DNA of 32,000 bases from Bdellovibrionales bacterium (GTDB lineage Bacteria; Bdellovibrionota; Bdellovibrionia; Bdellovibrionales; UBA1609), in NCBI GenBank assembly GCA_965247685.1, contig OZ252021.1:210001-242000 (forward strand). The letters run 5' to 3'. The notes below the pieces were generated by a model. It was not told the DNA's origin. It searched no databases and saw nothing but the letters and a program-made list of their open reading frames with translations. The number at the start of each line of letters is the position of its first letter. Within the stretch, counting starts at the first letter, position 1. A program made the translations under genes and the position numbers. Shown one piece after another: positions 2,515 through 29,360 of this stretch.

Positions 2515-2572
2515 CATTAGGTAAACTAACTTGCTCAGTAGTAATCCGTTTTAACCCACACAAAGGTCAGTT

Positions 2573-5361: not shown

Positions 5362-5400
5362 TGAATTATTACACACATACTCTAATTAGTTGATCATATT
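5362..5400 (+). promoter_or_regulatory. Degenerate palindrome plus -10-like hexamer upstream of the ANK gene at 5463
   Basis: TGAATTATTACA at 5362-5373 (left arm lacks one T), then 21 nt, then CATATT at 5395-5400. Confidence 0.35.
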
Positions 5401-5462
5401 CCTTTTTTATAGGTAAACTAACTTGCTCAGTAGTAATCGTTTGGACTGCACAAAGGTCAGTT

Positions 5463-6074: not shown

Positions 6075-6124
6075 AAATAGCTCACTCTTCTATGCAGAAG
6101 TAAAATCAACACTTAGAAAATAAA

Positions 6125-6139
6125 TGGCATTCCCTACGG
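6125..6139 (-). pseudogene. Fragment of the tRNA-Glu 3' end (duplicated junction)
   Basis: TGGCATTCCCTACGG at 6125-6139 is identical to 8922-8936, the 3' acceptor/CCA end of the intact tRNA-Glu. The identity extends about 60 nt leftwards into the ANK 3' flank (6066-6139 versus 8863-8936, one mismatch). After position 6139 only weak similarity to the T-arm remains. Confidence 0.75.
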
Positions 6140-6378
6140 ACTACTAACCGGAGTATCCTGTTAAAATTTTGTATTTTGATGTAGTTCTAATTGTACTATA
6201 TACTCCTATTTACATAAGTATGATTATTAAGCAATAATTATAGCATCATCCGAGTAGTAATATCTTTTATTTCTTTTGGATATTTTTCACACTTTTGTCC
6301 TTTTCCTTTAGGTAGCAAATGCCATTTGAACGTTCAAAAAGAATCAATTCAATTTTTAGAACCACTATTTGTTAAATC

Positions 6379-6492
6379 ATGAACATGTTGAGCAAAGAGC
6401 AAGTTTTACAAATGAACTATCCAGACTTCATTGGATTTATGGGGATGGAAAACACCTCCTTGTTGGAGGACTTTGATGATGAAACTATGTAA
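6379..6492 (+). pseudogene. Possible N-terminal remnant of a SAM-dependent methyltransferase gene
   Basis: The 37-codon ORF MNMLSKEQVLQMNYPDFIGFMGMENTSLLEDFDDETM* resembles, from memory, the N-termini of class I methyltransferases (..LSKEE.L.MNY.DF......N). From about 6470 the sequence becomes the type B spacer, so the ORF is cut off there. Confidence 0.25.
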
Positions 6493-6528
6493 GTATTACA
6501 TACATATTCTAATTAGTTTGACTATATT
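6488..6528 (+). promoter_or_regulatory. Palindrome plus -10-like hexamer upstream of the ANK gene at 6648
   Basis: TGTAAGTATTACA at 6488-6500, then 22 nt, then TATATT at 6523-6528. Confidence 0.5.
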
Positions 6529-6577
6529 CATTAGGTAAAGTAATTTGCTCATCAGTAATTATTTGGAAAGATAAGTT

Positions 6578-6646
6578 ATGAAAACTTATGCTTCTGATTA
6601 TTATGGGTTTGTTTTTAAGTATAATCTCATTACAAGGGGTGTATAA
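6578..6646 (+). promoter_or_regulatory. Conserved short upstream ORF in the ANK leader (MKTYASDYYGFVFKYNLITRGV*)
   Basis: ATG 6578. The stop TAA at 6644-6646 lies 1 nt before the main ATG 6648. Confidence 0.3.
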
Positions 6647-6647
6647 T

Positions 6648-7505
6648 ATGAAAAACTTAATAAAATTATTCGCTCATTCATTCACTATCACTCTTTTGAG
6701 TTTGTCAGTACTCGCAACCGCTCATGCAGAAAAAGTAGAATTAAATGAGAAATCTTTATCACCAGAAGAAAGGGAATTTTTCTCAGCAGTTAAATCTGGG
6801 GATAATAAAAGGGTTGAAGAAATTTTGTCAAAAGAAGATATAGATCTAAATATCCAAAATGAAAGGGGTCTAACAGCTTTAATGATAGCTGCCGAACTAG
6901 GTCATGAGCGTGTGGTAGAATCCCTACTCAAACACGGAGCAGATCCAAATATCGAAAGTAAAAATATCAAACATTCTACTTGGGATCAGAGCACTGCTTT
7001 ACATACGGCAGTTCGCAAGGGCAATGTAAAGTTGATAAAAATTCTCTATGACTACAAAGCAGATCTAGATAAAGGGGATTGGATGGATTACACAGCTTTA
7101 AACCAGGCAGCTGCTGAAAATAATGAAAATGTGGTACAAACTCTCCTCAAACTCGGAGCAGATCCAAATAAAGAAAATGAATTGAAAGAAACTACTTTAC
7201 ATGAGGCAGCTCGCATGGGTCATACTAATATGATAATAGCTTTAGTTACAAATGGAGCAAATATAGATGCCAAAGGTAGAGAAGGTCAAACAGCTTTACA
7301 TTGGGCAGCCTGGAACGGTCATGCAGGTCTGGTACAGGCCCTGCTCAAACTCGGAGCAGATTCAAATATCCAAGATGATAAATATAGAATAGCTTTAGAT
7401 TTTGCAATTACACGAGGTTATAAAGGTGTGGAAGATATTCTCCGTAAACACAAAGCAGTCTCAGGTGCAAACAACAGTTGTAAACAAACTATCAGCTCCA
7501 TTTGA
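6648..7505 (+). CDS. Secreted ankyrin-repeat protein (285 aa)
   Basis: ATG 6648 (MKNLIKLFAHSFTITLLSLSVLATAHA/EKVELNEK) has AAGGGG 8 nt upstream and matches the paralog starts. The track start at 6588 would add 20 non-conserved residues. It has about six ANK units and the tail AVSGANNSCKQTISSI*. Confidence 0.8.
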   Translation: MKNLIKLFAHSFTITLLSLSVLATAHAEKVELNEKSLSPEEREFFSAVKSGDNKRVEEILSKEDIDLNIQNERGLTALMIAAELGHERVVESLLKHGADPNIESKNIKHSTWDQSTALHTAVRKGNVKLIKILYDYKADLDKGDWMDYTALNQAAAENNENVVQTLLKLGADPNKENELKETTLHEAARMGHTNMIIALVTNGANIDAKGREGQTALHWAAWNGHAGLVQALLKLGADSNIQDDKYRIALDFAITRGYKGVEDILRKHKAVSGANNSCKQTISSI

Positions 7506-7663
7506 AAATAGCTCACTCTTCTATGCAGAAGTAGTCTCAACACTTAAAAAAACTACAACCGCAAGTTTATCACATTTGAGTAACTATTTAAAAAAGAACT
7601 TACAGTTGTTTTTAGTATAAATATTCAAGAACTTTTTAACTTTTGATTTTGATGATGAAACTA
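7506..7663 (+). repeat. Type B inter-cassette spacer, second copy
   Basis: Aligns with 3152-3317 almost base for base. Confidence 0.85.
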
Positions 7664-7719
7664 TGTAAGTATTACATACATATTCTAATCAGCTTGATTC
7701 TAATCAGCTTGATTATATT
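7664..7719 (+). promoter_or_regulatory. Palindrome plus -10-like hexamers upstream of the ANK gene at 7840
   Basis: TGTAAGTATTACA at 7664-7676, then 22 nt, then TCTAAT at 7699-7704. A 15-nt tandem duplication (TCTAATCAGCTTGAT x2, 7683-7712) moves the ancestral TATATT to 7714-7719. Confidence 0.45.
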
Positions 7720-7768
7720 CATTCAATAAGGTAACTTTCTCAGCAGTAATTATTTGGAAAGATAAGTT

Positions 7769-7813
7769 ATGAAGACTTGTACTTCTGATTATTATGGGTT
7801 TGTTTTTAAGTAG
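7769..7813 (+). promoter_or_regulatory. Conserved short upstream ORF in the ANK leader (MKTCTSDYYGFVFK*)
   Basis: ATG 7769, stop TAG at 7811-7813, 26 nt before the main ATG 7840. Confidence 0.35.
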
Positions 7814-7839
7814 AATATTACTATAAGGATGTAATCAAC

Positions 7840-8871
7840 ATGAAAAACTTAATAAAATTATTCGCTCATTTATTCACTATCATTCTTTTGAGTTTGTCAG
7901 TAATCGCAACCGCTCATGCAGACAAAGTAGAATTAAATGAGAAACTTTTCTCAGCAGTTAAATCTGGGGATAATAAAAGGGTTGAAGAAATTTTGTTAAA
8001 AAAAATAATAGATCTAGATATCCAAAATGAAAGGGGTCGAACAGCTTTAATGATAGCTGCCGAACTAGGTCATGAACGTGTGGTAGAATCCCTACTCAAA
8101 CACGGAGCAGATCCAAATATCGAAAGTAAAAATATCAAACATTCTACTTTGGATCAGAGCACTGCTTTACATAAGGCAGTTCGCAAGGGCAATGCAAAGT
8201 TGATACAAATTCTCTCTGACTACAAAGCAGATCTAGATAAAGGAGATTGGTTGGGTCTAACACCTTTACATTGGGCAATCGCTGAAGGTTATGAAGATCT
8301 GGTACAAATTCTCCTCAAACTCGGAGCAAATCCAAATATCCAAAATAGAAAGGGTCGAACACCTTTACATTGGGCAGCTCGCATGGGTCATACTAATATG
8401 ATAATAGCTTTAGTTACAAATGGAGCAAATATAGATGCCAAAGGTAGAGAAGGTCTAACACCTTTACATTGGGCAGCCTTTAACGGTTATAATGGTGCGG
8501 TACAGACCCTCCTCGAACACAAAGCAGATCCAAATATCCCAGATAAAGACGGTCGAACACCTTTAAATTTGGCAATTGCACGAGGTCATACTAATGTGAT
8601 AATAGCTTTAGTTACAAATGGAGCAAATATAGATGCCAAAGGTAGAGAAGGTCTAACACTTTTAAATTGGGCAGCCTCTAACGGTCATGCAGGTCTGGTA
8701 CAGACCCTGCTCAAACTCGGAGCAGATCCATATATCCCAGATGATAAAAATAAAACAGCTTTAGATTTGGCAATTGCACAAGGTCATAAAGGTGTGGAGA
8801 ATATTCTCCGTAAACACAGAGCAGTCTCAGGTGCAAACAACAGTTGTAAACAAACTATCAGCTCCATTTGA
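7840..8871 (+). CDS. Secreted ankyrin-repeat protein (343 aa)
   Basis: ATG 7840 has AAGGA upstream. The signal peptide is MKNLIKLFAHLFTIILLSLSVIATAHA/DKVELNEK. It has about eight ANK units (GRTPLHWAARMGHTNMIIALVTNGANIDAK...) and the tail AVSGANNSCKQTISSI*. Confidence 0.9.
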   Translation: MKNLIKLFAHLFTIILLSLSVIATAHADKVELNEKLFSAVKSGDNKRVEEILLKKIIDLDIQNERGRTALMIAAELGHERVVESLLKHGADPNIESKNIKHSTLDQSTALHKAVRKGNAKLIQILSDYKADLDKGDWLGLTPLHWAIAEGYEDLVQILLKLGANPNIQNRKGRTPLHWAARMGHTNMIIALVTNGANIDAKGREGLTPLHWAAFNGYNGAVQTLLEHKADPNIPDKDGRTPLNLAIARGHTNVIIALVTNGANIDAKGREGLTLLNWAASNGHAGLVQTLLKLGADPYIPDDKNKTALDLAIAQGHKGVENILRKHRAVSGANNSCKQTISSI

Positions 8872-8921
8872 AAATAGCTCACTCTTCTATGCAGAAGTAA
8901 TATCAACACTTAGAAAATAAA

Positions 8922-8996
8922 TGGCATTCCCTACGGGACTCGAACCCGTGTCTTCACCGTGAAAGGGTGATGTCCTAACCGCTAGACGAAGGGAAC
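8922..8996 (-). tRNA. tRNA-Glu (anticodon UUC), CCA encoded
   Basis: The reverse complement is GTTCCCTTCGTCTAGCGGTTAGGACATCACCCTTTCACGGTGAAGACACGGGTTCGAGTCCCGTAGGGAATGCCA. Acceptor stem GTTCCCT/AGGGAAT, anticodon stem TCACC/GGTGA with loop CTTTCAC, T-loop GGTTCGAGTCC. Confidence 0.92.
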
Positions 8997-8999
8997 ACA

Positions 9000-9076
9000 T
9001 GGTGACCCGCCTTGGGCTCGAACCAAGGACCCTCTCCTTAAAAGGGAGATGCTCTACCAAACTGAGCTAGCGGGTC
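9000..9076 (-). tRNA. tRNA-Lys (anticodon UUU), CCA encoded
   Basis: The reverse complement is GACCCGCTAGCTCAGTTTGGTAGAGCATCTCCCTTTTAAGGAGAGGGTCCTTGGTTCGAGCCCAAGGCGGGTCACCA. Acceptor stem GACCCGC/GCGGGTC, anticodon stem TCTCC/GGAGA with loop CTTTTAA. Confidence 0.92.
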
Positions 9077-9214
9077 AGATCTATTCACCAAAAATATAAA
9101 AAAATTACTCCCCACAATCTCAAAAAAATAATACGAGCACAATCAAAAAAGTACGAAATATAGAATTTTCAGCACCATAAGAACATAAACCTTAATGAGC
9201 TTCAAGTCAGTATC

Positions 9215-10516
9215 TTAAAATAAAGAACGAACCCAAATAAATTCATCTCTCTTCGGTCCCACAGATACCATATCAATAGAAATTTTTAACTCTTCTTCAA
9301 TAAACTTCAAATAAATCTGAGCATTTTTCGGCAAATCTTTTACTGATCGAATAGATTTCAAATCCTCATGCCAACCCAAAAATTCCTTATAAATAGGCTT
9401 GCATCGTTTTAAATCACTCTCATAAACAGGATAGTGATCTATTACCTTTCCGTCTAACTCATAACTCACACACAACTTGATCTTTTCTAAACCAGAAAGA
9501 ACATCCAACTTCATCAAAGCTAAACACGTAAAGCCATTCAGACGAATCGCATATTTTAAAGCTATAAGATCGAGCCATCCACACCTTCTTAATCTGTCGG
9601 TCGTCGAACCCCGTTCTTTCCCCTTTTCTGATAAATGCGAATTTTCAGGGGAGTCTTTTTCACACTCCGAAGGAAAGGGTCCATACCCCACACGAGTGAC
9701 ATAAGCCTTAGCCACACCCACAACCTTATGGATATGCTTCCAACCTATACCTAAACCTGTGAGTGCAGAACCAGTTAAAGTCGAAGAGCTGGTCACATAA
9801 GGATAAGTTCCATGAAAAATATCAAGCAAAACACCTTGGGCACCTTCCAGAAGAACTTTTTTTCCTTCCTGAAAAGCCTGATGAATTAATAACGATGTGT
9901 CTTTACAACAATAAAGTTTTAAACTCTCTCGCACAGGAATTAATTTTTCAATCAAAGAATCTACGGAGTAACCCTCATATTGATAGAATTCTTTCATCAA
10001 AAATAATTTCTCTTTAGAAGAATTCACAAGTTTTTCCCTCAAATCATCTAGAGGTAAAAACAAATCCCTAAAGAGAAGAGCTTTTCGAGAAATTCTATCC
10101 TCATAAGCAGGGCCTATTCCTCTTCCTGTAGTTCCAATTTTAGACTTGCCTGCGCTTTCTTCCCTCAACTGGTCTAAATGTTTGTGATAGTCGAGCAAAA
10201 TAGTGGACGACTCGGACACCACCAACTGCTGATCATTTTCTAAATAGCCTGATTTTTTTAAGGCTTGAATTTCCTCCATCAAACCAAAAACATCGAGCAC
10301 TACCCCTGCTCCAATCACACAAATGGTGTGAGGATGGAGTACTCCGGAAGGCACTAGGTGCAGGATAATTCTATTTCCATTAATATTTAATGTATGCCCT
10401 GCGTTAGCCCCACCTTGGTAGCGAACAATATAATCCATATGTGAAGCAAAGACATCGACAAGCTTACCCTTACCTTCATCACCCCACTGAGAGCCTATAA
10501 CAACAATTCCAGACAC
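9215..10516 (-). CDS. purA: Adenylosuccinate synthetase
   Basis: 433 aa. The N-terminus VIGSQWGDEGKGKLVD (P-loop of PurA), GGANAGHT and TTGRGIGPAYEDR are hallmark PurA motifs. The start codon is GTG at 10516. Confidence 0.95.
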   Translation of the reverse strand: MSGIVVIGSQWGDEGKGKLVDVFASHMDYIVRYQGGANAGHTLNINGNRIILHLVPSGVLHPHTICVIGAGVVLDVFGLMEEIQALKKSGYLENDQQLVVSESSTILLDYHKHLDQLREESAGKSKIGTTGRGIGPAYEDRISRKALLFRDLFLPLDDLREKLVNSSKEKLFLMKEFYQYEGYSVDSLIEKLIPVRESLKLYCCKDTSLLIHQAFQEGKKVLLEGAQGVLLDIFHGTYPYVTSSSTLTGSALTGLGIGWKHIHKVVGVAKAYVTRVGYGPFPSECEKDSPENSHLSEKGKERGSTTDRLRRCGWLDLIALKYAIRLNGFTCLALMKLDVLSGLEKIKLCVSYELDGKVIDHYPVYESDLKRCKPIYKEFLGWHEDLKSIRSVKDLPKNAQIYLKFIEEELKISIDMVSVGPKRDEFIWVRSLF

Positions 10517-10563
10517 AAAAAGGAATCAGACATAATAAATCGAAATAAATCAAGCTTTAAAAA

Positions 10564-10589
10564 AATATTGTTATGTAATATTGTTATGT
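10564..10589. repeat. Perfect 13-bp tandem direct repeat (ATATTGTTATGTA x2)
   Basis: Read directly in the divergent purA / 211-aa-gene intergenic region. Confidence 0.9.
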
Positions 10590-10747
10590 AGAAGCTTTAC
10601 AATCAGAATAAATTTAAGAAAACCCCTCTATAAAGGACAGCTAGGCTTAAGTCTACTCTTATAAAGAATAATGTAATATTGTAAAAATTCCTTTTTAGAA
10701 ATATTAAAGACCTCCCGATAAATGAGTATGAAGAGGAAGTTTAAATT

Positions 10748-11383
10748 ATGAAGAAACCCAACGTATTCCTATATGTTCTCTTTTTTTTGATCAGTTCTGT
10801 TTTACTCCTGCATTGTGATGGTGTGCAGTCTGCTCGCGAAGACCGTCGAGTCAGAGAATTGGCTCGTTTAGCAAACCTGGATGACTTGGATGATGATGAA
10901 CTGGATGAAGTAATTACGGATGTTGAAGCAAGTATCAAAGACAAATTTAAAAACATTTTTAATAAATTAGAAAAATGTGAATCTTCTACACCTTCTACCC
11001 CACAAACTCGAGCAGATCTTGGTTTTTCACTTTTAGGAATACAAAGGTACAATAGACCTCAACAACTAAGAGTATGCTTCCAACAAAGACTGGAAAGTGC
11101 AACCGAGCTTTTATGTACAGCAAAGCAAGAAATATATTCAGAAAAACAAAGATGTAGAAATTTTGACTTTCGATGTACACGTTTAGACACATCTATCAAC
11201 AGACTAGAGAATCTACAAAGAAGATACAAAACTACTCTGAGAAAGACAGCGAATGAGTTTTCTGGCTGCAGCAGCAGACGCACTGGTATACTCAGAGCAG
11301 ATGAATGTAGTGCTTGGCATGATATTATCGACCATGAATCTTTTATAACCTGTGATTATGATGACCGTTCTCGTCGTTATTAG
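10748..11383 (+). CDS. Hypothetical exported protein (211 aa), acidic stretch and eight cysteines
   Basis: ATG has GAGGAAG about 10 nt upstream. The hydrophobic N-terminus MKKPNVFLYVLFFLISSVLLLHC/DG suggests a signal peptide, possibly an atypical lipobox. It has the run LDDLDDDELDEV and an Arg-rich C-terminal half. I recognise no family. Confidence 0.6.
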   Translation: MKKPNVFLYVLFFLISSVLLLHCDGVQSAREDRRVRELARLANLDDLDDDELDEVITDVEASIKDKFKNIFNKLEKCESSTPSTPQTRADLGFSLLGIQRYNRPQQLRVCFQQRLESATELLCTAKQEIYSEKQRCRNFDFRCTRLDTSINRLENLQRRYKTTLRKTANEFSGCSSRRTGILRADECSAWHDIIDHESFITCDYDDRSRRY

Positions 11384-11483
11384 CATATACATTTCAATTC
11401 ACAAGATGAAAGATCGAAATATCTTCAAAAAAAATTTCTAAAATTATCTAGCCCTTCAAAAAAATATAAGTCATGATAATTCC

Positions 11484-12839
11484 ATGACCGACAAAGGTTT
11501 TGATTTTTTAGTCATTGGAGGAGGTTCTGGTGGTGTTCGAGCAGCCCGAAGAGTTGCTTCCATGGGAAAGAAGGTTGCCCTGTTTGAAAAATCCGATATA
11601 GGAGGAACTTGTGTTCTCAAAGGCTGTATACCCAAAAAACTTATGTGGTATGGTGCTAGATTTTTAGAAGATACAAAGCTTGCACAAGAGTACGGCTGGA
11701 AAACTTCATCTCCTAAGTTAGATTGGAAATTACAAAAAGAAAGAAGAGAGATGGAATTAAAAAGACTCTCTCAAATCTACACTAAGCTTTTAACAGATAG
11801 TCATGTTCACATTATTCCACATGAAGCCTGCTTTGAAGCGCCTGGCACAATTCGCGCAGGAGACGCTCTCTATTCTGCACCCTATATTCTGATTGCAACT
11901 GGCGGATGGCCTTATAAGCCTGACATTGAAGGTGTTGAGCATACTCTCTCCTCTAATGAGATTTTTGAACTCCAACAGCAACCTCACTCCTTGATTGTTG
12001 TAGGAGCTGGCTATATTGCTTTAGAATTTGCAGGTATATTCCAAGCTTGTGGAACTCACACAACAGTTCTTTGTCGAAAAGATAAAGTACTCAGGGGCTT
12101 TGATGATGATGTTCGTATGTTCTATGAAAAACAAGCTCAACTCAAAGGACTTAATATTATTCATAATTTTCATCCTGAAAAAATAAAAAAAAATAAAGGT
12201 CAACTTTCAATTTATAACTCTGAAGGTCGTTCCCACTCTGCAGAACACATCCTTTTTGCAACAGGAAGAACACCTTTTATCGAACCTCTTCATTTAGAAA
12301 AAGCTGGCATTCAAACCAAAAACGGAAGTATTTTAGTCTCGGAGCAATTTGAAACTTCTGCTAAAGGAGTGTATGCTATCGGAGATTGTGCTCATACTCC
12401 TTATGCTTTAACTCCTGTCGCCTTAGCAGAAGCTGAAGTTTTAGTGCAAAATCTATTCGGCTTGCAAAAAACAAAGATGGATTACAATAATATTCCAAGT
12501 GCAGTTTTCTCAAATCCCAACATTGCTCAAGTGGGGCTCACCGAGCAACAAGCCTTAGAGAAAGGTTTAAAAATTCAAGTGTTTGAATCCTCCTTTCGCC
12601 CTTTGAAATACACCATTAAACCGATAAAGACTGAAGAAAAAATCTATGTTAAAATGATCGTCAACCAAGAAAACGATCGTGTATTAGGCTGCCATATGGT
12701 AGGAGAAGATTCTCCAGAAATTATTCAAGGGTTGGCGATTGCTATGGTAGCTAGGGCTACTAAAAAAGATTTTAACCGCACTATTGGACTTCACCCTTCA
12801 AGCGCCGAGGAGTTTTGTACTTTAAGGACTCCAAGATGA
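11484..12839 (+). CDS. gor: Glutathione-disulfide reductase family flavoprotein
   Basis: 451 aa. It has the FAD-binding GGGSGG, the redox-active GGTCVLKGCIPKK (CxxxxC) and ILIATGG-P, and the C-terminal KKDFNRTIGLHPSSAEEF matches the Gor dimer-interface His-Pro motif. It is collinear with E. coli Gor. Confidence 0.88.
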   Translation: MTDKGFDFLVIGGGSGGVRAARRVASMGKKVALFEKSDIGGTCVLKGCIPKKLMWYGARFLEDTKLAQEYGWKTSSPKLDWKLQKERREMELKRLSQIYTKLLTDSHVHIIPHEACFEAPGTIRAGDALYSAPYILIATGGWPYKPDIEGVEHTLSSNEIFELQQQPHSLIVVGAGYIALEFAGIFQACGTHTTVLCRKDKVLRGFDDDVRMFYEKQAQLKGLNIIHNFHPEKIKKNKGQLSIYNSEGRSHSAEHILFATGRTPFIEPLHLEKAGIQTKNGSILVSEQFETSAKGVYAIGDCAHTPYALTPVALAEAEVLVQNLFGLQKTKMDYNNIPSAVFSNPNIAQVGLTEQQALEKGLKIQVFESSFRPLKYTIKPIKTEEKIYVKMIVNQENDRVLGCHMVGEDSPEIIQGLAIAMVARATKKDFNRTIGLHPSSAEEFCTLRTPR

Positions 12840-12843: not shown

Positions 12844-13773
12844 ATGAGTTCTCAAAAATTTCATCAATGGTTTAACTACATAAGAAAGATCCAAGATTTT
12901 TTCTTATCCCAAGGTTTTTGCCCTGTAGAAACTCCCATTCTTGTTCCAAATGCCAGCACTGAACCTTATTTAGAGTTTTTTTCCACTATAAGAATAACTC
13001 AAAATAAGAAACAAAAACTATGGCTCACAGCTTCTCCTGAAATGCATTTAAAAAAACTCCTCTGCCAAGGCTTTTCCCCGATCTTTGAAATTCATAAAAG
13101 TTTTAGAAATAACGAAGAAGGTCCACTCCATTTAAACGAATTCTATATGCTTGAATGGTACAGAACCCATACTCCATGGACAAAGATCATGGAAGATTTA
13201 GAAGAACTTTTAAAATTCTTACAAAAAATACTTAAATTCCCTCTTAAGCTTTTTAAAAGATATACTGTAAAAGAGTTATTCCAAAAACATTGTGATATAA
13301 ACCTTGATCCAAATTCAAAAAAAGAGGATCTCATCCCCCGCCTCAATCAATTTCAAATTCCTTATGAAAAATCTTTTTCTTTTGAAGATATGTTTCATCT
13401 TTTATTTCTCAACCAGATTGAAAAAAACCTTGAGAAAGATATTCCAACTATCATTTACAATTACCCTCCTTCTTTAAGGGCTTACTCTCAACTCAACGAA
13501 GAAGGTTGGGCTTCTCGCTTTGAATTTTATTGGAAAGGATTAGAGCTAGCTAATGCTTTTCATGAGATTCAAGATGCTAAAGAACAACTTGAAATATTCC
13601 AAAAAGATTTAGAAAATAGAAAAACCGACAAAGATCTCAGTATGGATCAAGAGCTTATTGAATATATGAAGAAAGGAATGCCCCCTTGTGTAGGTATTGC
13701 CTTAGGGCTCGAAAGATTATTCATGGCTATTTATGATTACAAAGACATTCACCAAGTTCATCCGTTTTTTTAA
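12844..13773 (+). CDS. epmA: EF-P lysine lysyltransferase (PoxA/GenX, truncated LysRS paralog)
   Basis: 309 aa. The motifs ASPEMHLKKLL, FEIHKSFRNNE, NEFYMLEWY, RFEFYWKGLELANAFHE and GIALGLERL parallel the class II aaRS motifs of E. coli EpmA. There is no anticodon-binding domain. Confidence 0.85.
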   Translation: MSSQKFHQWFNYIRKIQDFFLSQGFCPVETPILVPNASTEPYLEFFSTIRITQNKKQKLWLTASPEMHLKKLLCQGFSPIFEIHKSFRNNEEGPLHLNEFYMLEWYRTHTPWTKIMEDLEELLKFLQKILKFPLKLFKRYTVKELFQKHCDINLDPNSKKEDLIPRLNQFQIPYEKSFSFEDMFHLLFLNQIEKNLEKDIPTIIYNYPPSLRAYSQLNEEGWASRFEFYWKGLELANAFHEIQDAKEQLEIFQKDLENRKTDKDLSMDQELIEYMKKGMPPCVGIALGLERLFMAIYDYKDIHQVHPFF

Positions 13774-22885: not shown

Positions 22886-23851
22886 ATGCAAGGCTATAAA
22901 GTATCTTTTAAAGAAGCTTGCAAACTACTACAACAAGGTGATGTGGTTTCTATTCCTACAGAAACAGTATATGGATTGGCTGGAGATATTAGTAATGCCG
23001 AAACAATAAAAAAAATTTTTCATATAAAACAAAGACCCTTTTTTGATCCTTTGATCGTCCATTTTTCTCACTGGAGTCAATTAAAAAAAATAGCTCAATG
23101 TTCTTCTCCTGTCACAGAACGTTTATCTCAATCTTTTCACCCGGGACCTTTGACGTTGGTGCTCCCAAAAAAAGAAGAAATCTCTGATCTAGTTACATCC
23201 CATCTTCCTACGGTAGCAGTACGAATACCCTCTCATTCTTTGACATTGAAGCTTTTACGAGAGACTCAACTACTTTTAGCGGCGCCTAGTGCTAATTTGT
23301 TTTCAAAAATAAGTCCCACTCGTGCCGAACATGTGACACTCTCTTTATCCGTTCCTGTATTAGATGGAGGTCCTTGCGATGTAGGAATTGAATCAACTAT
23401 TTTGGAAGTGCAGGAAGATCAAAAAACACTTGTTGTATTAAGACCCGGAGTGATTGGTTTGAAAGAACTCCATAAATTTTTAAAATCTAATAACTTCACA
23501 AATTGGAGTGTTCATTTATCTGATTCTAATCTATCTACTCATCCTGGACAGTTTCACGCTCACTACACTCCGGATGCACCATTGGTATTAGTTCAAGTTC
23601 AAAAAAGGATTACTTCTGATGCAATCATCAAAAAAATAAAAGAATTCTATCCCCTTCTTGAACCAGAAGAATATAAAATCTCAGATGACCCTTATCTCTT
23701 AGCGAGAAATCTTTATCACAATTTAAGAAATCTTTCTCAAAATTCTGTAGGTTACGTTGTGAGAACTTATCCATTCAAATATAAAAATGATGCTTGGAGA
23801 GCTGTCTGGAACCGTCTTGAAAAAGCTTCTTCCAAAACCATTAATCTTTAA
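22886..23851 (+). CDS. tsaC: L-threonylcarbamoyladenylate synthase (Sua5/YwlC-type TsaC, YrdC plus Sua5 domains)
   Basis: 321 aa. It has PTETVYGLAGD, RPFFDPLIVH, AVRIPSH and LAAPSANLFSKISPT, and the length fits the two-domain Sua5 form. Its last 11 nt overlap the convergent gene at 23841-25310. Confidence 0.85.
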   Translation: MQGYKVSFKEACKLLQQGDVVSIPTETVYGLAGDISNAETIKKIFHIKQRPFFDPLIVHFSHWSQLKKIAQCSSPVTERLSQSFHPGPLTLVLPKKEEISDLVTSHLPTVAVRIPSHSLTLKLLRETQLLLAAPSANLFSKISPTRAEHVTLSLSVPVLDGGPCDVGIESTILEVQEDQKTLVVLRPGVIGLKELHKFLKSNNFTNWSVHLSDSNLSTHPGQFHAHYTPDAPLVLVQVQKRITSDAIIKKIKEFYPLLEPEEYKISDDPYLLARNLYHNLRNLSQNSVGYVVRTYPFKYKNDAWRAVWNRLEKASSKTINL

Positions 23852-25310
23852 AACTATTTTGGAGAGAATCTAAAGTATCACGGACATCCCTTTGATATTG
23901 CTTTCTTACTTTATCCATTTCATATGTAGATTCAAAACCGATGTAAACTACATCTCCTGCGATAACAGCATAAGCAGAAACACCAGCTAAAGAGACAGCA
24001 CCAATACCTATACCGCGTGCGATACGACCTAGTCTGTGGAAGAAAGATTTTCGACCTTCTAACACTTGATTGGTGACATTTTTCAAGTCTTCTCCTGCTT
24101 TCCTTATCTTCATCTCTTCTTCACTAACTTTAACATCTTGAGCTGCACTTGTTTTTGGATCAGATGTTTGACTCCTGTCGACATTGTTATCAGCTGCACT
24201 TGTTTTTGGATCAGATGTTTGACTCCTGTCGACATTGTTATCAGCTATGGCACGTTTGCTTTGTTCATACTCTTCATTTATGGCAAGTTTGCTTTGTTCA
24301 TACTCTTCATACGCTTCATTTACGGTAAGTTTTCTTTGTTCATTCGCTACAGCTATGGCAAATTTTCTTTTTCCATCCTCTTCAGCTATGGCACGAACTT
24401 TTTGTTTATTCGCTTCACCTAGGGCACGTTTTCTTTGTTCATTCGCTTCATCTATGGCACGTTCTCTTTCAACCCCCGTCTCCTTCTCCGCTTCAACTAG
24501 GGCACGAGCTTTTTGTTTATCCGCTTCAACTATGGCACGTTTTCTTTGTTCATCCGCTTCAACTAGGGCACGTTTTCTTTGTTCATTCGCTTCAGCTATG
24601 GCACGTTTGTTTTGTCCATTCGCTTTAACTACGACACGAGCTTTTTGTTTATCCGCTTCAACTAGGGCACGAACTTTTTGTTTATTCGCTTCAACTGGGG
24701 CATCTTCTTTTTTCGATTTTTCTGTTGCCACTAGGTCATCAATTTTTCTTTTTTGTTTATTCATTTGTTCAAATAGGACTGTGCTCTTTTCTGGGTCAGC
24801 CTTTATAGCTTGGTCAAGTATTCCTTGTTGAATCTTCACCGCTCTCCTTAGTTTTCTAGCACCAGGCTTTTTATTAGGAGTTAAGAGTCGGACAGTACCT
24901 TTTCCAAATGCTGAAGCTTTATGTACCATATATGCAGTACCAAGAGCTGCTGGCACAGCGATATATATACCACGCTCACTGTTTACACCAATCGCTTCAT
25001 TCATCTGTTGGAATTCATCTATAAAGACAGAAACTCCCTGTTTAAAAATCAACTCTATCCTATCTTCACCGTCTAATTGTTCAAAAGCAAGAGCTATGTT
25101 TTCCCATTTAGAAGTAATCGATTCTAATTGATCGAGATCTATATCTCCACCATTTGTTCCAAGATTATTCCTCACATCTTGTGCAAGCAACATAGCTAAT
25201 TGATCGTCTAGTGACTCATTTGGTTCTTCATTATTTTCTACAGCATTTGCTGACAGACTCAAAAGAATGACAGTGAATAAACTGACGAATAATTTTATTA
25301 AGTTTTTCAT
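23841..25310 (-). CDS. Signal-peptide protein with hendecad (11-aa) Lys/Glu/Ala-rich repeat core and C-terminal glycine-rich hydrophobic segment (489 aa)
   Basis: The N-terminus MKNLIKLFVSLFTVILLSLSANA/VENNEE uses the same signal-peptide module as the ANK genes. The core is about 13 units of the type VEADKQKARAL / AEANEQRKRAL, followed by 2 x DNNVDRSQTSDPKTSAA. The C-terminus has RGIGIGAVSLAGVSAYAVIAGDVVYIGF plus a charged tail. Confidence 0.8.
   Translation of the reverse strand: MKNLIKLFVSLFTVILLSLSANAVENNEEPNESLDDQLAMLLAQDVRNNLGTNGGDIDLDQLESITSKWENIALAFEQLDGEDRIELIFKQGVSVFIDEFQQMNEAIGVNSERGIYIAVPAALGTAYMVHKASAFGKGTVRLLTPNKKPGARKLRRAVKIQQGILDQAIKADPEKSTVLFEQMNKQKRKIDDLVATEKSKKEDAPVEANKQKVRALVEADKQKARVVVKANGQNKRAIAEANEQRKRALVEADEQRKRAIVEADKQKARALVEAEKETGVERERAIDEANEQRKRALGEANKQKVRAIAEEDGKRKFAIAVANEQRKLTVNEAYEEYEQSKLAINEEYEQSKRAIADNNVDRSQTSDPKTSAADNNVDRSQTSDPKTSAAQDVKVSEEEMKIRKAGEDLKNVTNQVLEGRKSFFHRLGRIARGIGIGAVSLAGVSAYAVIAGDVVYIGFESTYEMDKVRKQYQRDVRDTLDSLQNSFKD
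24141..24242 (-). repeat. 51-nt tandem repeat x2 (encodes DNNVDRSQTSDPKTSAA twice)
   Basis: AGCTGCACTTGTTTTTGGATCAGATGTTTGACTCCTGTCGACATTGTTATC is repeated with a period of 51 nt. An identical pair lies at 26236-26337. Confidence 0.9.
24243..24700 (-). repeat. Degenerate 33-nt coding repeats (hendecads)
   Basis: The pattern ...GCTTCAACTAGGGCACG(A/T)...TTT(C/G)TTTGTT(C/T)AT(C/T)C... recurs every 33 nt, with two irregular units. Confidence 0.8.
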
Positions 25311-25365
25311 ATTAATTACACTCCCTATAATAATTTAAAAACAACCTCATAATAATCAGATTTCA

Positions 25366-25407
25366 AATTTAGCACAATAAAAATTTCTAAACCATGTAAT
25401 TATTACA
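25366..25407 (-). promoter_or_regulatory. Palindrome plus -10-like hexamer upstream of the hendecad-repeat gene at 23841-25310
   Basis: On the coding (minus) strand: TGTAATAATTACA (25395-25407), then 23 nt, then TAAATT (25366-25371) preceded by TGC (extended -10-like). The ATG is about 55 nt further on. Confidence 0.5.
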
Positions 25408-25415
25408 CTTTAATA

Positions 25416-25667
25416 TTACTGTTGTTGTCTTTCTATTTCTGTTAATTCCTCTTTAAACCATTCTTGAATGATTCGATTCTGATCTTGATTCTCTTGATAT
25501 TGATACCATAGCATAATAGCCACTCCTCCAATTCCAACTCCTACTCCACTTAGAACAAATTTTTTCGCATAAGAAGGTGGAATGTGTAATTTATTTAATG
25601 AAGCAAAATATGCTTGAGACAGTGGAGATTTGATGAACTTAAAAGATTTTAAAATAAGGGAAAAAAG
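25416..25667 (-). pseudogene. Truncated copy (C-terminal 83 codons) of the 273-aa membrane-protein gene
   Basis: Aligns with 27882-28133. It translates to FSLILKSFKFIKSPLSQAYFASLNKLHIPPSYAKKFVLSGVGVGIGGVAIMLWYQYQENQDQNRIIQEWFKEELTEIERQQQ*. It has no start codon and no upstream part, and it ends at a junction with tsaC-derived sequence. Confidence 0.8.
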
Positions 25668-25946
25668 AAGAAATCTCTGATCTAGTTACATCCCATCTTC
25701 CTACGGTAGCAGTACGAATACCTTCTCATTCTTTGACATTGAAGCTTTTACAACAGACTCAACTACTTTTAGCAGCGCCTAGTACTAACTTGTTTTCAAA
25801 AATAAGTCCCACTCGTGTTAAGAAATCTTTCTCAAAATTCTGTAGGTTACGTTGTGAGAACTTATCCATTCAAATATAAAAATGATGCTTGGAGAGCTGT
25901 CTGGAACCGTCTTGAAAAAGCTTCTTCCAAAACCATTAATCTTTAA
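25668..25946 (+). pseudogene. tsaC fragment copy with an internal deletion
   Basis: 25668-25817 aligns with tsaC 23174-23324, and 25818-25946 aligns with tsaC 23723-23851. About 398 nt of tsaC are missing between the two pieces, and there is no 5' part. Confidence 0.8.
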
Positions 25947-27693
25947 AACTATTTTGGAGAGAATCTAAAGTATCACGGACATCCCTTTGATATTGCTTTC
26001 TTACTTTATCCATTTCATATGTAGATTCAAAACCGATGTAAACTACATCTCCTGCGATAACAGCATAAGCAGAAACACCAGCTAAAGAGACAGCACCAAT
26101 ACCTACACCGCGTGCGATACGACCTAGTCTGTGGAAGAAAGATTTTCGACCTTCTAACACTTGATTGGTGACTTTTTTCAAGTCTTCTCCTGCTTTCCTT
26201 ATCTTCATCTCTTCTTCACTAACTTTAACATCTTGAGCTGCACTTGTTTTTGGATCAGATGTTTGACTCCTGTCGACATTGTTATCAGCTGCACTTGTTT
26301 TTGGATCAGATGTTTGACTCCTGTCGACATTGTTATCAGCTATGGCAAGTTTTCTTTGTTCATACTCTTCAGCTATGGCAAGTTTTCTTTGTCCATGCTC
26401 TTCATCTATGGCAAGTTTTCTTTGTCCATGCTCTTCATCTGTGGCACTTTTTCTTTGTTCATACTCTTCATCTATGGCACTTTTTCTTTTTTCATACTCT
26501 TCATCTATGGCACTTTTTCTTTGTTTATATTCTTCATCTATGGCAAGTTTTCTTTGTGGATCCGCTTCAGCTATCGCTACAGCTACGGCACGATCTTTTT
26601 GTGCAAACTCTTCAACCATGGCAAGTCTTCTTTGTTCATGCGCTTCATCTAGGTCAAATTTTCTTTTTGCATCCGCTTCATCTAGGGCAGACTGTCTTTT
26701 TGCATCCACTTCATCTAGGGCAGACTGTCTTTTTGCATCCGCTTCATCTAGGGCAGACTGTCTTTTTGCATCCACTTCATCTAGGGCAGACTGTCTTTTT
26801 GCATCCACTTCATCTAGGGCAGATTTTCTTTTTGCATCTTTCGCATCTGCTTTTTCTTGTCTTTTCGCTGCTGCTTCTTCTTTTTTCGCATTTTTCGCAT
26901 CTGCTTTTTCTTGTCTTTTCGCTGCTGCTTCTTCTTTTTTCGCATTTTTCGCATCTGCTTTTTCTTGTCTTTTCGCTGCTACTTCTTCTTTTTTCGCATT
27001 TTTCGCATCTGCTTTTTCTTGTCTTTTCGCTGCTACTTCTTCTTTTTTCGCATTTTTCGCATCTGCTTTTTCTTTTTTCGCATCTGCTTCTTTTTTCGCT
27101 TCTGCTTTTACCACTAGGTCATCAATTTTTCTTTTTTGTTTATTCATTTGTTCAAATAGGACTGTGCTCTTTTCTGGGTCAGCCTTCATAGCTTGGTCAA
27201 GTATTCCTTGTTGAATCTTCACCGCTCTCCTTAGTTTTCTAAAAGAAGGTTTTTTATTAGGAGTTAAGAGTCGGACAGTACCTTTTCCAAATGCTGAAGC
27301 TTTATGTACCATATATGCAGTACTAATAGCTGCTGGCACAGCGATATATATACCACGCTCACTGTTTACACCAATCGCTTCATTCATCTGTTGGAATTCA
27401 TCTATAAAGACAGAAACTCCCTGTTTAAAAATCAACTCTATCCTATCTTCACCGTCTAATTGTTCAAAAGCAAGAGCTATGTTTTCCCATTTAGAAACTA
27501 TCGATTCTAATTGATCGAGATCTATATCTCCACCATTTGTTCCAAGATTATTCCTCACATCTTGTGCAAGCAACATAGCTAATTGATCGTCTAGTGACTC
27601 ATTCGGTTCTTCATTATTTTCTACGGCATTTGCTGACAAACTCAAAAGAATGATAGTGAATAAACTGACGAATAATTTTATTAAGTTTTTCAT
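25936..27693 (-). CDS. Signal-peptide protein with hendecad and 18-aa Lys/Glu/Ala-rich repeats and C-terminal glycine-rich hydrophobic segment (585 aa), paralog of 23841-25310
   Basis: The first 195 aa or so and the last 140 aa or so are almost identical to the paralog. The core differs: 4 x EKADAKNAKKEE(V/A)AAKRQ, 6 x DAKRQSALDE(V/A), 7 x DEEY(K/E)QRKSAI. Confidence 0.8.
   Translation of the reverse strand: MKNLIKLFVSLFTIILLSLSANAVENNEEPNESLDDQLAMLLAQDVRNNLGTNGGDIDLDQLESIVSKWENIALAFEQLDGEDRIELIFKQGVSVFIDEFQQMNEAIGVNSERGIYIAVPAAISTAYMVHKASAFGKGTVRLLTPNKKPSFRKLRRAVKIQQGILDQAMKADPEKSTVLFEQMNKQKRKIDDLVVKAEAKKEADAKKEKADAKNAKKEEVAAKRQEKADAKNAKKEEVAAKRQEKADAKNAKKEEAAAKRQEKADAKNAKKEEAAAKRQEKADAKDAKRKSALDEVDAKRQSALDEVDAKRQSALDEADAKRQSALDEVDAKRQSALDEADAKRKFDLDEAHEQRRLAMVEEFAQKDRAVAVAIAEADPQRKLAIDEEYKQRKSAIDEEYEKRKSAIDEEYEQRKSATDEEHGQRKLAIDEEHGQRKLAIAEEYEQRKLAIADNNVDRSQTSDPKTSAADNNVDRSQTSDPKTSAAQDVKVSEEEMKIRKAGEDLKKVTNQVLEGRKSFFHRLGRIARGVGIGAVSLAGVSAYAVIAGDVVYIGFESTYEMDKVRKQYQRDVRDTLDSLQNSFKD
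26236..26337 (-). repeat. 51-nt tandem repeat x2
   Basis: The same unit as at 24141-24242. Confidence 0.9.
26338..26568 (-). repeat. 33-nt coding repeats, about 7 units (DEEYxQRKxAI)
   Basis: CAGCTATGGCAAGTTTTCTTTGTTCATACTCTT-like units with a period of 33 nt. Confidence 0.85.
26640..26837 (-). repeat. 33-nt coding repeats, about 6 units (DAKRQSALDEV)
   Basis: TGCATCC(G/A)CTTCATCTAGGGCAGACTGTCTTTT with a period of 33 nt (for example 26668 and 26701). Confidence 0.9.
26838..27075 (-). repeat. 54-nt coding repeats, about 4 units (EKADAKNAKKEEVAAKRQ)
   Basis: TTTTTCGCATCTGCTTTTTCTTGTCTTTTCGCTGCTGCTTCTTCTTTTTTCGCA with a period of 54 nt (for example 26891 and 26945). The + strand here is strongly pyrimidine-rich. 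Confidence 0.9.
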
Positions 27694-27748: not shown

Positions 27749-27790
27749 AATTTAGCACAATAAAAATTTCTAAACCATGTAATTATTACA
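27749..27790 (-). promoter_or_regulatory. Palindrome plus -10-like hexamer upstream of the hendecad-repeat gene at 25936-27693
   Basis: On the minus strand: TGTAATAATTACA (27778-27790), then 23 nt, then TAAATT (27749-27754). Confidence 0.5.
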
Positions 27791-27860
27791 TCATAACATT
27801 AATGCTACAGTCTTGCTACTTCTTCTAATTCCTCTTTAAGCCATTAAAATTTCTAAACCA

Positions 27861-27873
27861 TGTAATTATTACA
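27861..27873 (-). promoter_or_regulatory. Orphan copy of the palindrome
   Basis: TGTAATTATTACA. On the minus strand it is followed by only 15 nt of the leader (TGGTTTAGAAATTTT), and then by a short remnant resembling the 3' end of the 273-aa gene (27812-27845). Confidence 0.4.
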
Positions 27874-27881
27874 TTTTAATA

Positions 27882-28691
27882 TTACTGTTGTTGTCTTTCT
27901 ATTTTTGTTAATTCCTCTTTAAACCATTCTTGAATGATTTGATTCTGATCTTGATTCTCTTGATATTGATACCATAGCATAATAGCCACTCCTCCAATTC
28001 CAACTCCTGCCCCACTTAGAAAAAACTTTTTCGCATAAGAAGGTGGAATGTGTAATTTATTTAATGAAGCAAAATATGCTCGAGACAGAGGAGATTTGAC
28101 GAACCTAAAAGATTTTAAAATAAGGGAAAAAAGTTTCTCCATCGCCACCAATTCTAAAGCATAAAATCCAGTGCTTCCTAAAATATCAACAATTCGAATA
28201 GTTTTGGCAAAACCACCTATCTCATCTTGATCCATAGTCCCTAAACAATCTATTGCCCCTTGCTTAAATCCATCTGAACGGATGAGAAAAATTGTATATA
28301 AAGAATGGAACCAGCTTTCGAGCTCAAAAAATCCAGTATTCGTTTTTTCGAGATAGTCTGCTTTTTTCCCTCCAATAGCTGAAAAAGGCTGGGCTGCACC
28401 TTCATATAAAATATGCATCCAAGCTAATAGAGAAGAATCTTCTGAATCATATTGATCCTGTTCATTCAATTCACCTGATCCAGCAACCGTACGATAAACG
28501 GAACATAGACTTATGGTCATAGAATAAGCATCTTTTTCCACACTCATTCTATAATCGTATAGATCTTGTAAGACCTCATCTCCAAAATTTTTACGAGTTA
28601 CCTTTTGAATACTTTGCAATTCAGTATTTGATTGTGCTTGCACAGAAAATACAATGAATAAGGAAAAAATAAAATATAACAAACGAAACAT
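27882..28691 (-). CDS. Hypothetical signal-peptide protein with C-terminal glycine-rich TM segment (269 aa from ATG 28691; 273 aa from GTG 28703)
   Basis: The signal peptide is MFRLLYFIFSLFIVFSVQA/QSN, with AGGGAG upstream. The C-terminus has FFLSGAGVGIGGVAIMLWY followed by the tail QYQENQDQNQIIQEWFKEELTKIERQQQ. I recognise no family. Confidence 0.7.
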   Translation of the reverse strand: MFRLLYFIFSLFIVFSVQAQSNTELQSIQKVTRKNFGDEVLQDLYDYRMSVEKDAYSMTISLCSVYRTVAGSGELNEQDQYDSEDSSLLAWMHILYEGAAQPFSAIGGKKADYLEKTNTGFFELESWFHSLYTIFLIRSDGFKQGAIDCLGTMDQDEIGGFAKTIRIVDILGSTGFYALELVAMEKLFSLILKSFRFVKSPLSRAYFASLNKLHIPPSYAKKFFLSGAGVGIGGVAIMLWYQYQENQDQNQIIQEWFKEELTKIERQQQ

Positions 28692-28733
28692 CTTTAAAAA
28701 CACTCCCTGTACAAAAAAATGCAGTTTTAACGG

Positions 28734-28793: not shown

Positions 28794-29360
28794 CTAAATG
28801 TTGAAATCAACAACAGTAAACAATGAGATAGAAGCAGGCCTTCTCCACCAATTCTCTTGTCTAAGCATATACTGAACCCCCACTTCAATAAGAGCAGAGG
28901 TATTTCGATTCAACTGTATTAATTTATAAGCACTCAATACTTTTAAGTAAATAGGCCATTTTACTTTAGAGTTTTTGGCAAAACCTACTCCAAATAAAAA
29001 ACCAAAATAAAAAGGGGTTTTGCGATGCAAATGTGGAAAACGGAGGCCTGAATAGACATTAACAGATTTCATACGAGCCTGTAAATCTAACTCCATTTGA
29101 ACTCTAAAAATAGAGGAGGAGTACCAATTCTTATACTCTTTGCGGTAATCCATTTGGACAATAATCTCTTTTGCAAAAGTATTTGTGAAAGAATGAAAAG
29201 GACGAAATATCGGAACTCCTAAAGCAAAGTTGATGTTCTGAGAAGAAAACAATTTATTAGAAAAGTATTCATTTGCTCTGACATGAGAGCTAAAAAAAAT
29301 AGATAAGATGATTAAACTACTAGCCACAAAATTCAATTTCTTTTCCTTGAGCTGCGCCAA
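28794..29360 (-). CDS. Hypothetical exported protein (188 aa), possibly a small outer-membrane beta-barrel
   Basis: A TTG start at 29360 gives MAQLKEKKLNFVASSLIILSIFFSSHVRA/NEY (signal-peptide-like). It is rich in aromatic and alternating residues and ends VVDFNI. It overlaps the pyrC 3' end by 41 nt. The start is uncertain. Confidence 0.55.
   Translation of the reverse strand: MAQLKEKKLNFVASSLIILSIFFSSHVRANEYFSNKLFSSQNINFALGVPIFRPFHSFTNTFAKEIIVQMDYRKEYKNWYSSSIFRVQMELDLQARMKSVNVYSGLRFPHLHRKTPFYFGFLFGVGFAKNSKVKWPIYLKVLSAYKLIQLNRNTSALIEVGVQYMLRQENWWRRPASISLFTVVDFNI

Follow-up and report, generated by a model that had tools for sequence, protein, structure and literature searches.

Paralogues A and B, the two neighbouring genes analysed here, lie on contig OZ252021.1 of a Bdellovibrionales bacterium (assembly GCA_965247685.1), within a stretch of 32,000 nucleotides (nt; positions 210,001 to 242,000 of the contig) that is called the window and whose own numbering is used throughout. 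In the reading judged the most probable, they are tandem paralogues in a small, lineage-restricted family of membrane-anchored alpha-helical rods that carry a Sec-type signal peptide and whose core serves as a stalk. The conserved blocks, each with a hydrophobic segment, would form a membrane-embedded base, and the charged, Ala-rich core would be a rigid stalk or a weak right-handed coiled coil. Such a core would be constrained in helicity alone, not in sequence or length, as in the stator stalk formed by ATP synthase subunit b, and its hypervariability would be the product of slippage and unequal recombination acting on a rod under weak constraint. The locus is a clean case in which the ends of a membrane protein stay constant and the helical core is replaced wholesale by 7-, 11- or 18-residue units. 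The steps are directly visible in it, as duplication scars, unit amplification and a conversion tract.

Architecture of paralogues A and B

The two genes and their parts are located as follows.

23841-25310, (-): paralogue A, an open reading frame (ORF) of 489 amino acids, with 67% overall identity to paralogue B; GGGAG lies 10 nt 5' of the ATG
25936-27693, (-): paralogue B, an ORF of 585 amino acids, aligned to paralogue A
25242-25310, (-): signal peptide of A, residues 1-23 (...LSANA/VENNE); equivalent in B at 27625-27693
24864-25136, (-): conserved N-block of A, approximately residues 59-149; equivalent in B at 27247-27519
24921-24971, (-): hydrophobic segment 1 of A, residues 114-130, IYIAVPAALGTAYMV.. 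(IYIAVPAA..Y.V); equivalent in B at 27304-27354
24243-24692, (-): hendecad array of A, residues 207-356, 13 units, from Tandem Repeats Finder and unit parsing
26845-27072, (-): 18-residue (54-nt) array, in B only, residues 208-283, EKADAKNAKKEE[VA]AAKRQ, four full units and a partial fifth
26338-26844, (-): hendecad array of B, residues 284-452, 15 units, one of them of 15 residues, from repeat finding and unit parsing
24141-24242, (-): Pro/Ser/Thr-rich linker of A, 2 x 17 residues, DNNVDRSQTSDPKTSAA; equivalent in B at 26236-26337
23934-24014, (-): Gly/Ala-rich transmembrane segment of A, residues 433-459, from hydropathy; equivalent in B at 26029-26109

A preliminary description of this DNA, made from the letters alone, had reported near-identical ends in the two proteins and an identical pair of 17-residue DNNVDRSQTSDPKTSAA repeats. 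Both statements hold: 7 amino acids differ over the first 193 codons and 4 over the last 141, and the linker consists of a 51-nt unit (2.1 copies in Tandem Repeats Finder) that is 100% identical within and between the genes. The same description had assigned to the proteins a signal peptide and a C-terminal hydrophobic anchor, both of which are present, and had overlooked the second conserved hydrophobic segment at residues 114-130.

The signal peptide is the most hydrophobic segment of A and B; basic residues precede it and an A-x-A motif follows, and a signal-like N-terminal segment is found in every family member. The N-block comprises a helix (ED..EL.FK...N.A.G), hydrophobic segment 1 and a TPNK motif, with invariant columns at L87, F89, K90, N104, A106, G108, A118, P120, A121, A132, T144 and P145. 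The Gly/Ala-rich transmembrane segment has a basic stretch on its N side and is followed by an acidic C-terminal helix, the invariant positions around it being R429, R432, G433, G437, G443, G452, D453 and Y456.

Forward-strand ORFs of 163-315 amino acids (24235-24831, 26161-26652, 26244-27191 and 26330-27214) run antisense over the repeat arrays. Their translations are of low complexity and rich in Phe, Leu, Ser and Cys, and they are by-products of the repeats, not genes. Scans for promoters and terminators were uninformative, giving fewer sites than shuffled sequences.

Origin and turnover of the repeat cores

The core of A is made of 13 units, 11 hendecads plus one unit of 15 and one of 14 residues, in agreement with the "about 13 hendecads" counted earlier, 11 of which are regular. 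In B, four 18-residue units and a partial fifth are followed by 15 hendecad-type units, one of 15 residues, which bears out the array first proposed (four 18-residue units, then 11-residue units) and completes it. Tandem Repeats Finder scores these repeats at 169-466, far above chance, with 33-nt arrays in both genes and a 54-nt array in B only (5.1 copies, 95% matches). The 11-residue period that had been suggested was checked by hydropathy periodicity analysis, and the power near period 11 and its harmonics exceeds that of every shuffle.

The cores had also been called entirely different, which was an overstatement. All 33-nt units of A and B form one homologous family, pairwise 61-100% identical, with a mean identity of 78% within each gene and 73% between genes, and their consensus reads E-A-[DN]-x-Q-[KR]-x-R-A-[LI]-x. 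The terminal units are orthologous (A13/B15 94% identical, A10/B14 91%), and each array holds one irregular 15-residue unit. Other units have been amplified inside one copy: B2, B3 and B5 are 100% identical, as are the four 54-nt units of B in all pairwise comparisons at the DNA level, and in A the pair A4/A8 is 97% and the group A1, A6 and A9 94% identical. The 18-residue unit of B reads EVAAKRQEKAD + AKNAKKE, that is, a hendecad plus seven residues, and its first part shares 20/33 nt with the hendecad EVDAKRQSALD. These comparisons indicate that a single ancestral unit of 33 nt (11 residues) gave rise to the central arrays, which were reshaped by gain and loss of different variants, and that copy B acquired the 18-residue array in addition.

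In the picture that emerges, the birth and death of units would be rapid and proceed via slippage or unequal exchange acting on pre-existing variant units. The rapid repeat turnover envisaged at the outset fits well with units that are 100% identical inside an array and with the amplification of different variants in each copy. In practical terms, the repeat length would make the locus usable as a strain-typing marker.

Tandem duplication and gene conversion

The history of the flanks can be read from the following elements.

27882-28703, (-): gene of 273 amino acids, directly 5' of paralogue B, with a signal peptide, a Gly-rich C-terminal transmembrane segment and an acidic coiled tail
25380-25667, (-): duplication scar, 3' part of the 273-amino-acid gene; source 27846-28133, 277/288 nt identical
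25661-25935, (+): duplication scar, two Sua5/TsaC fragments, recognised by nucleotide identity to the source
23723-24010: tract at the 3' end attributed to gene conversion, identical to 25818-26105
27760-27925: 83-nt tandem duplication in the leader of B (repeat family D7), which spans the stop codon of the 273-amino-acid gene

The spacer between A and B (25311-25935, 625 nt) is composed of copies of pieces of both flanking genes, 96-100% identical to their sources. Within the Sua5 scar, 25661-25817 copies an internal piece, 23168-23324 (151/157 nt identical), and 25818-25935 copies the 3' end of Sua5, 23723-23840 (118/118 nt). The scar of the 273-amino-acid gene differs from its parent by 3 synonymous and 7 non-synonymous codon changes, and the near-neutral divergence of the scraps is 3.8% (17/445 nt). 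Because the spacer consists of Sua5 and 273-amino-acid-gene copies, the ancestral order was Sua5, repeat gene, 273-amino-acid gene. These copies show a tandem duplication of ~2.1-2.5 kb that took the ancestral gene together with pieces of its neighbours Sua5/TsaC and the 273-amino-acid gene. One end of the duplication lay within Sua5 and the other within the 273-amino-acid gene, giving the present layout, and part of the Sua5 scrap was deleted afterwards. Sua5/TsaC (+) and paralogue A (-) are convergent and their 3' ends overlap by 11 nt (23841-23851), which explains why the end of Sua5 was duplicated together with the repeat gene.

Divergence of the flanks since the duplication is estimated at ~4%; over the N-terminal coding region, A and B differ by 0.042 synonymous changes per synonymous site (dS) and 0.022 non-synonymous changes per non-synonymous site (dN). 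The near-identical ends of A and B are thus attributed mainly to a recent tandem segmental duplication, which the preliminary description had overlooked.

It had, on the other hand, proposed gene conversion in the flanks, and for one flank this is supported. The 3' ends share an identical run of 288 nt, with 2 mismatches in the first 530 nt, which has P = 1.3e-5 at the 3.8% divergence of the neutral scraps. Purifying selection cannot account for this tract, because in copy B it takes in non-functional Sua5 sequence. The 3' end of A and B has, on this evidence, been re-homogenised by gene conversion. In the leader of B, the copies of the 83-nt duplication are 83% identical, and a third related copy lies at 25377-25459, 5' of A.

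A small lineage-restricted family

Exhaustive HMMER searching of 1.84 billion representative proteins with query residues 1-195 returned 7 matching proteins (E 1e-16 to 3e-7), all on three ENA contigs of 1.37, 1.16 and 0.59 Mb, and the N-block is the sole part of the N-terminal region that they cover. No relative was found in a scan of GTDB genomes, in scans of JGI metagenomes, for which the N-terminal and the C-terminal block served as queries, or in a scan of viral contigs. A word-indexed search of 5.8 billion proteins gave no match with protein A, and with the family profile it returned P0003 only, that is, one of the seven relatives recovered by exhaustive HMMER; its negatives for repeat-rich proteins need caution.

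Pfam has no family at E <= 1 for A and B, NCBIfam and PHROGs also give none, and nine family members searched against Pfam show sub-threshold, generic coiled-coil matches only. Sequence and profile searches of the PDB yielded nothing significant, the best match being the chemotaxis receptor 3g6b (E = 0.19). Assignment to the methyl-accepting chemotaxis proteins, with their MCPsignal hairpin, was rejected on the insignificance of that match and the lack of a Pfam match. Foldseek against the PDB had no match at E <= 0.001. The preliminary description had named assignment to a well-described family as the outcome that would speak against it, and these profile and structure searches made no such assignment. 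Judged by them, A and B belong to a tiny, undescribed, lineage-restricted family.

There are 2-7 family copies per genome, at the same locus. In all four genomes the island has the order SLT, DHOase-like gene, a gene of 152-188 amino acids, a gene of 256-274 amino acids together with the family array, Sua5, VTT/DedA and IDH. Most family genes sit between the 256-274-amino-acid gene and Sua5. At L005, one of the related loci, one family gene lies beyond the former, between it and the DHOase-like gene, and in one relative the SLT gene and the DHOase-like gene are separated by two copies. A Sua5 match in a genome labelled Flavobacteriia is not syntenic. Between genomes, family members are 23-32% identical overall, housekeeping neighbours 61-87% and the 273-amino-acid gene 49-54%. 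BLASTP among the island genes also revealed extra, divergent paralogues of 164-303 amino acids with non-repetitive cores.

Throughout the family the order of parts is the same: signal peptide, variable acidic segment, conserved helix (ED..EL.FK...N.A.G), Pro-containing hydrophobic segment and TP[DN]K motif, then the variable core, a basic stretch (..GR..RG), a Gly/Ala-rich hydrophobic segment with an invariant GD..Y and a C-terminal acidic helix (DMD.L..Y..D). In the family alignment, conservation is limited to the ends. The core ranges from ~65 to ~260 residues and is built of 7-, 11- or 18-residue repeats or of non-repetitive helix; in the heptad cores of relatives, a 21-nt unit is present 27 times and hydropathy peaks at periods of 3.5 and 7. 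The 11-residue period is not family-defining, because the cores of relatives are heptad-based or non-repetitive.

A second pair of paralogues repeats the pattern. P0004 and P0005, on the 1.16-Mb contig (locus L003), differ at a single position within their first 215 residues, and their cores are unrelated, with 65 amino acids in one and 27 copies of a 7-residue repeat in the other. The combination of constant ends and a swapped core has recurred here independently.

Some further features of the relatives may be recorded. Four family members at L003 form two pairs, at 2408-5009 and 8766-11734. In P0002, the acidic N-terminal region contains 2.4 copies, 99% identical, of a 162-nt unit. On the 1.37-Mb contig (L004, 10001-15651) there are seven same-strand tandem island genes of 451, 164, 303, 125, 301, 227 and 280 amino acids, most with a non-repetitive core and a strongly hydrophobic first segment.

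The core as a proposed helical stalk

AlphaFold2 was run on paralogue A and on the shortest relative. The core of A is predicted as two helices, 205-276 and 281-362, with a predicted local distance difference test score (pLDDT) of 70-85; over both proteins the core helices reach pLDDT 70-87, and the linker DNNVDRSQTSDPKTSAA is predicted to be non-helical, with pLDDT < 50. Repeats of 7, 11 and 18 residues match 7/2, 11/3 and 18/5 residues per turn, respectively, which are all alpha-helical rod geometries; therefore, selection seems to hold the helicity of the core and little else.

On an 11/3 wheel, one narrow stripe, A9-x2-(K/R)6-(L/I)10, is common to all four unit types; it covers ~100 degrees and has Lys/Arg at its centre. 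The apolar register at 11/3 has z = 3.8 in A (binary scale, all units) and is weak, z = 2.0, in the hendecads of B; the rod of Escherichia coli AtpF gives z = 2.1-2.3. The composition is likewise close to that rod: the cores of A and B contain 43-47% charged residues, 18-19% Ala and 18-19% large hydrophobic residues, and AtpF 43%, 23% and 16%, respectively. The 18-residue array of B, with 2% large hydrophobic residues, has no apolar stripe. A single alpha-helix (ER/K) domain was also considered and set aside, since opposite-charge i,i+4 pairs number 0.08-0.15 per residue, which is judged low for a domain of this kind.

As for the membrane topology, the 15 residues before the C-terminal transmembrane segment contain 4-6 Lys plus Arg and 0-1 Asp plus Glu in 14/14 members, and the tail past it is neutral to acidic. 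Hydrophobic segment 1 is acidic on its N side and basic on its C side across the family; as a transmembrane helix it is credible in the divergent paralogues and marginal in A and B. This charge distribution somewhat favours, at slightly better than even odds, a two-span hairpin with a cytoplasmic rod over a single C-terminal anchor with a periplasmic rod. The hairpin topology is uncertain, because segment 1 and the C-terminal segment score weakly on a Hessa-type scale. Known transmembrane helices of the Opp and DedA proteins of the window were the control on this crude scale, with a median of +0.65 and a maximum of +3.9.

Several points weigh against the stalk as proposed here. Segment 1 of A and B scores above +6 kcal/mol and would not stop translocation on its own, and their C-terminal segment, at +2.6 to +2.9, is at the weak end of the range. 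The AlphaFold2 models as a whole are poor (mean pLDDT 55 and 60), with the hydrophobic segments drawn as low-confidence strands. The part of B formed by the 18-residue array, having no stripe, cannot be a coiled coil. None of the searches described above gave a homologue of known function. In the N-terminal region, dN/dS is ~0.5, a value at which relaxed and diversifying selection are not separable, and a multi-copy, fast-evolving family in an ankyrin-rich organism would also be compatible with a host-facing role in place of that of a passive spacer.

The first alternative places the rod on the other side of the membrane, as a TolA-like structure spanning the periplasm. The signal peptide would be cleaved, segment 1 would not span, the C-terminal segment would sit in the inner membrane, and paralogues of differing length would reach differing depths of the envelope. 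The Sec-type signal peptide is compatible with it, as is a segment 1 that in A and B, at above +6, is too polar for stop-transfer, and the Ala/Lys/Glu-rich 18-residue repeats resemble the established composition of TolA domain II. It is nevertheless rather unlikely. The charge asymmetry at both hydrophobic segments opposes this orientation in 14/14 members, the divergent paralogues have a segment 1 that makes a good transmembrane candidate, no TolA-family match exists in Pfam or NCBIfam, and the anchor is at the opposite end from that of TolA.

The second alternative is an exported variable protein located in a host-derived membrane, in the manner of the chlamydial Inc or the phytoplasma immunodominant membrane proteins, with the rod turned towards the host and under diversifying selection. 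Both hydrophobic segments are marginally hydrophobic, seven consecutive ankyrin-repeat genes at 131-8871 suggest a eukaryotic host, and the contigs of the source genome and its relatives measure 1.2-1.4 Mb. The family is, in addition, multi-copy, its island is variable and its rate of evolution far exceeds that of the neighbouring genes (23-32% against 61-87% identity for the housekeeping neighbours). Speaking against this proposal are a classical Sec signal peptide in place of a type III or IV secretion signal, the lack of any secretion system seen within the window and the ~300 residues that separate the hydrophobic segments, which form no bilobed hairpin. It is considered quite unlikely. 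Its most specific form is more doubtful still: A and B would be founders of an undescribed host-interface class, in which the two marginal segments cross the inner membrane and insert in a host-derived membrane so that the variable rod faces the host. Such proteins would be functionally Inc-like and structurally unrelated to Inc, with a rod diversified via repeat turnover and conversion between paralogues, in a reduced-genome, ankyrin-rich source possibly related to Bdellovibrionota. The family is confined to a few reduced genomes that also bear ankyrin-repeat arrays. If host-facing, its members would form a new class of variable proteins at the host interface; otherwise they would be ordinary envelope proteins specific to the lineage, with a linker prone to slippage.

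The preliminary description had itself offered two structures for the hendecads, a right-handed coiled coil and a 3-11 amphipathic helix. The former, or a stalk, is in keeping with the narrow stripe; the latter, as a lipid-binding helix, is unsupported. As a helix that binds or protects lipid surfaces, like those of apolipoproteins, perilipins, alpha-synuclein and group 3 LEA proteins, the core would have its strict 11-residue period, the 11/3 register held across 150 residues of A (z = 3.8) and a whole-array moment in A of 0.20, near the 0.25 of alpha-synuclein and the LEA3 consensus, to recommend it. The idea is highly improbable, given local (22-residue) hydrophobic moments of 0.24 in A, not above shuffles (0.21 +/- 0.04), and 0.10 in the B hendecads, below shuffles (0.21 +/- 0.03), against 0.48 and 0.43 for the lipid-binding reference peptides 18A and apoA-I consensus, together with the conserved Lys/Arg inside the ~100-degree stripe, the 2% of large hydrophobic residues in the 18-residue array of B, the relatives that keep the ends yet swap hendecads for heptads or non-repeats, and the lack of an Apolipoprotein, LEA_4, Synuclein or Perilipin match in Pfam at E <= 1.

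Neighbouring genes and genome setting

The 273-amino-acid gene has orthologues of 256-274 amino acids, 49-54% identical, at L003 7372-8196, L004 9105-9875 and L005 8649-9470. In 4/4 genomes it occupies the DHOase side of the island, opposite the Sua5 end. The protein also has conserved Cys residues and a basic loop, and no match was found for it in Pfam or the PDB. That it could be a core-less member of the family was ruled out by BLASTP and hhalign (probability 0.85%), though the architecture is analogous.

Upstream of it, 28794-29360 (-) encodes a 188-amino-acid protein with an N-terminal hydrophobic segment that is apparently rich in beta-strands and is 67-77% identical in three relatives; it has no match in Pfam, NCBIfam or PHROGs and may be a small outer-membrane protein. 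Its gene starts 41 nt before the DHOase-like gene ends. Farther away, 12844-13773 (+) encodes a 309-amino-acid class II aminoacyl-tRNA-synthetase-like protein that matches tRNA-synt_2 only in Pfam, without an anticodon-binding domain, and has the size and type of the EF-P lysyltransferase EpmA/PoxA.

The seven consecutive ankyrin-repeat genes at the start of the window (131-8871, (+)) encode proteins of 170-533 amino acids that match the Ank families of Pfam with E down to 1e-91. Arrays of ankyrin-repeat genes are typical of bacteria living inside or on eukaryotic cells. For the PurA protein of the window, the closest named matches, at 59% identity, come from metagenome-assembled Bdellovibrionales genomes. 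A bacterium with a reduced genome, living in association with a eukaryotic host and affiliated loosely with Bdellovibrionota, is the probable source.

Comparison with known systems

With ATP synthase subunit b, whose rod tolerates length changes, A and B share a membrane anchor and a long, charged, Ala-rich helix, and may share its apolar stripe at 11/3 to 18/5 residues per turn. They are not homologous to it and have no ATP-synt_B match in Pfam. At the far end of their rod lie another conserved block and a transmembrane segment; a signal peptide, tandemly repeated DNA and more than one gene copy per genome are further differences, and the ATP synthase context is missing. The likeness to TolA domain II concerns part of B only, namely the 18-residue repeats, which are Ala/Lys/Glu-rich, predicted helical and without a hydrophobic stripe, in a protein anchored in the envelope. 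Unlike TolA, A and B lack its C-terminal domain and any profile match to it, and have a C-terminal anchor. Their neighbours are Sua5, VTT, IDH and the DHOase-like gene, not a Tol-Pal context.

Apolipoproteins, perilipins, alpha-synuclein and group 3 LEA proteins resemble A and B in the 11-residue period and A in its 11/3 apolar register. In A and B, however, the amphipathicity is weak or absent, a basic residue lies in the stripe, there is no profile match, the period is not kept in the family, and the proteins are anchored in the membrane through hydrophobic segments. From the chlamydial Inc proteins they differ in having no bilobed hydrophobic domain, their segments being ~300 residues apart, and in an N-terminus that is a Sec-type signal peptide. 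Streptococcal M, mycoplasma Vlp/Vsa and phytoplasma Amp/IdpA proteins are similar in their conserved targeting and anchoring ends, in central repeats that vary in length and sequence and in an evolution via repeat gain and loss and recombination between paralogues. A and B, in contrast, have no LPXTG motif or lipobox, their source organism is apparently two-membraned, and no sequence relationship exists.

The nearest analogy is with the Bdr proteins of Borrelia. In these, the N-terminal part is reportedly conserved, the centre is an array of 33-bp (11-residue) repeats that vary in number, and a hydrophobic anchor forms the C-terminus. A resemblance in overall architecture is possible, as A and B have a conserved N-terminus, a variable 11-residue array, a C-terminal hydrophobic anchor and multiple copies. 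Bdr proteins are not known to have a signal peptide or a second conserved hydrophobic segment, both of which are present in A and B. The two groups also differ in that no sequence relationship links them, whether by the Bdr N-terminal domain or by the KID-type repeat, A and B having no Pfam or NCBIfam match at E <= 1, and in that Bdr genes are plasmid- or prophage-borne, in contrast to the chromosomal island that houses A and B. Bdr paralogues are multi-copy, associated with the inner membrane and still of unknown function (PMC10016077). The family of A and B is new to databases and very narrow; its kind is familiar, that of the paralogous membrane-anchored protein with a slippage-prone helical repeat core.

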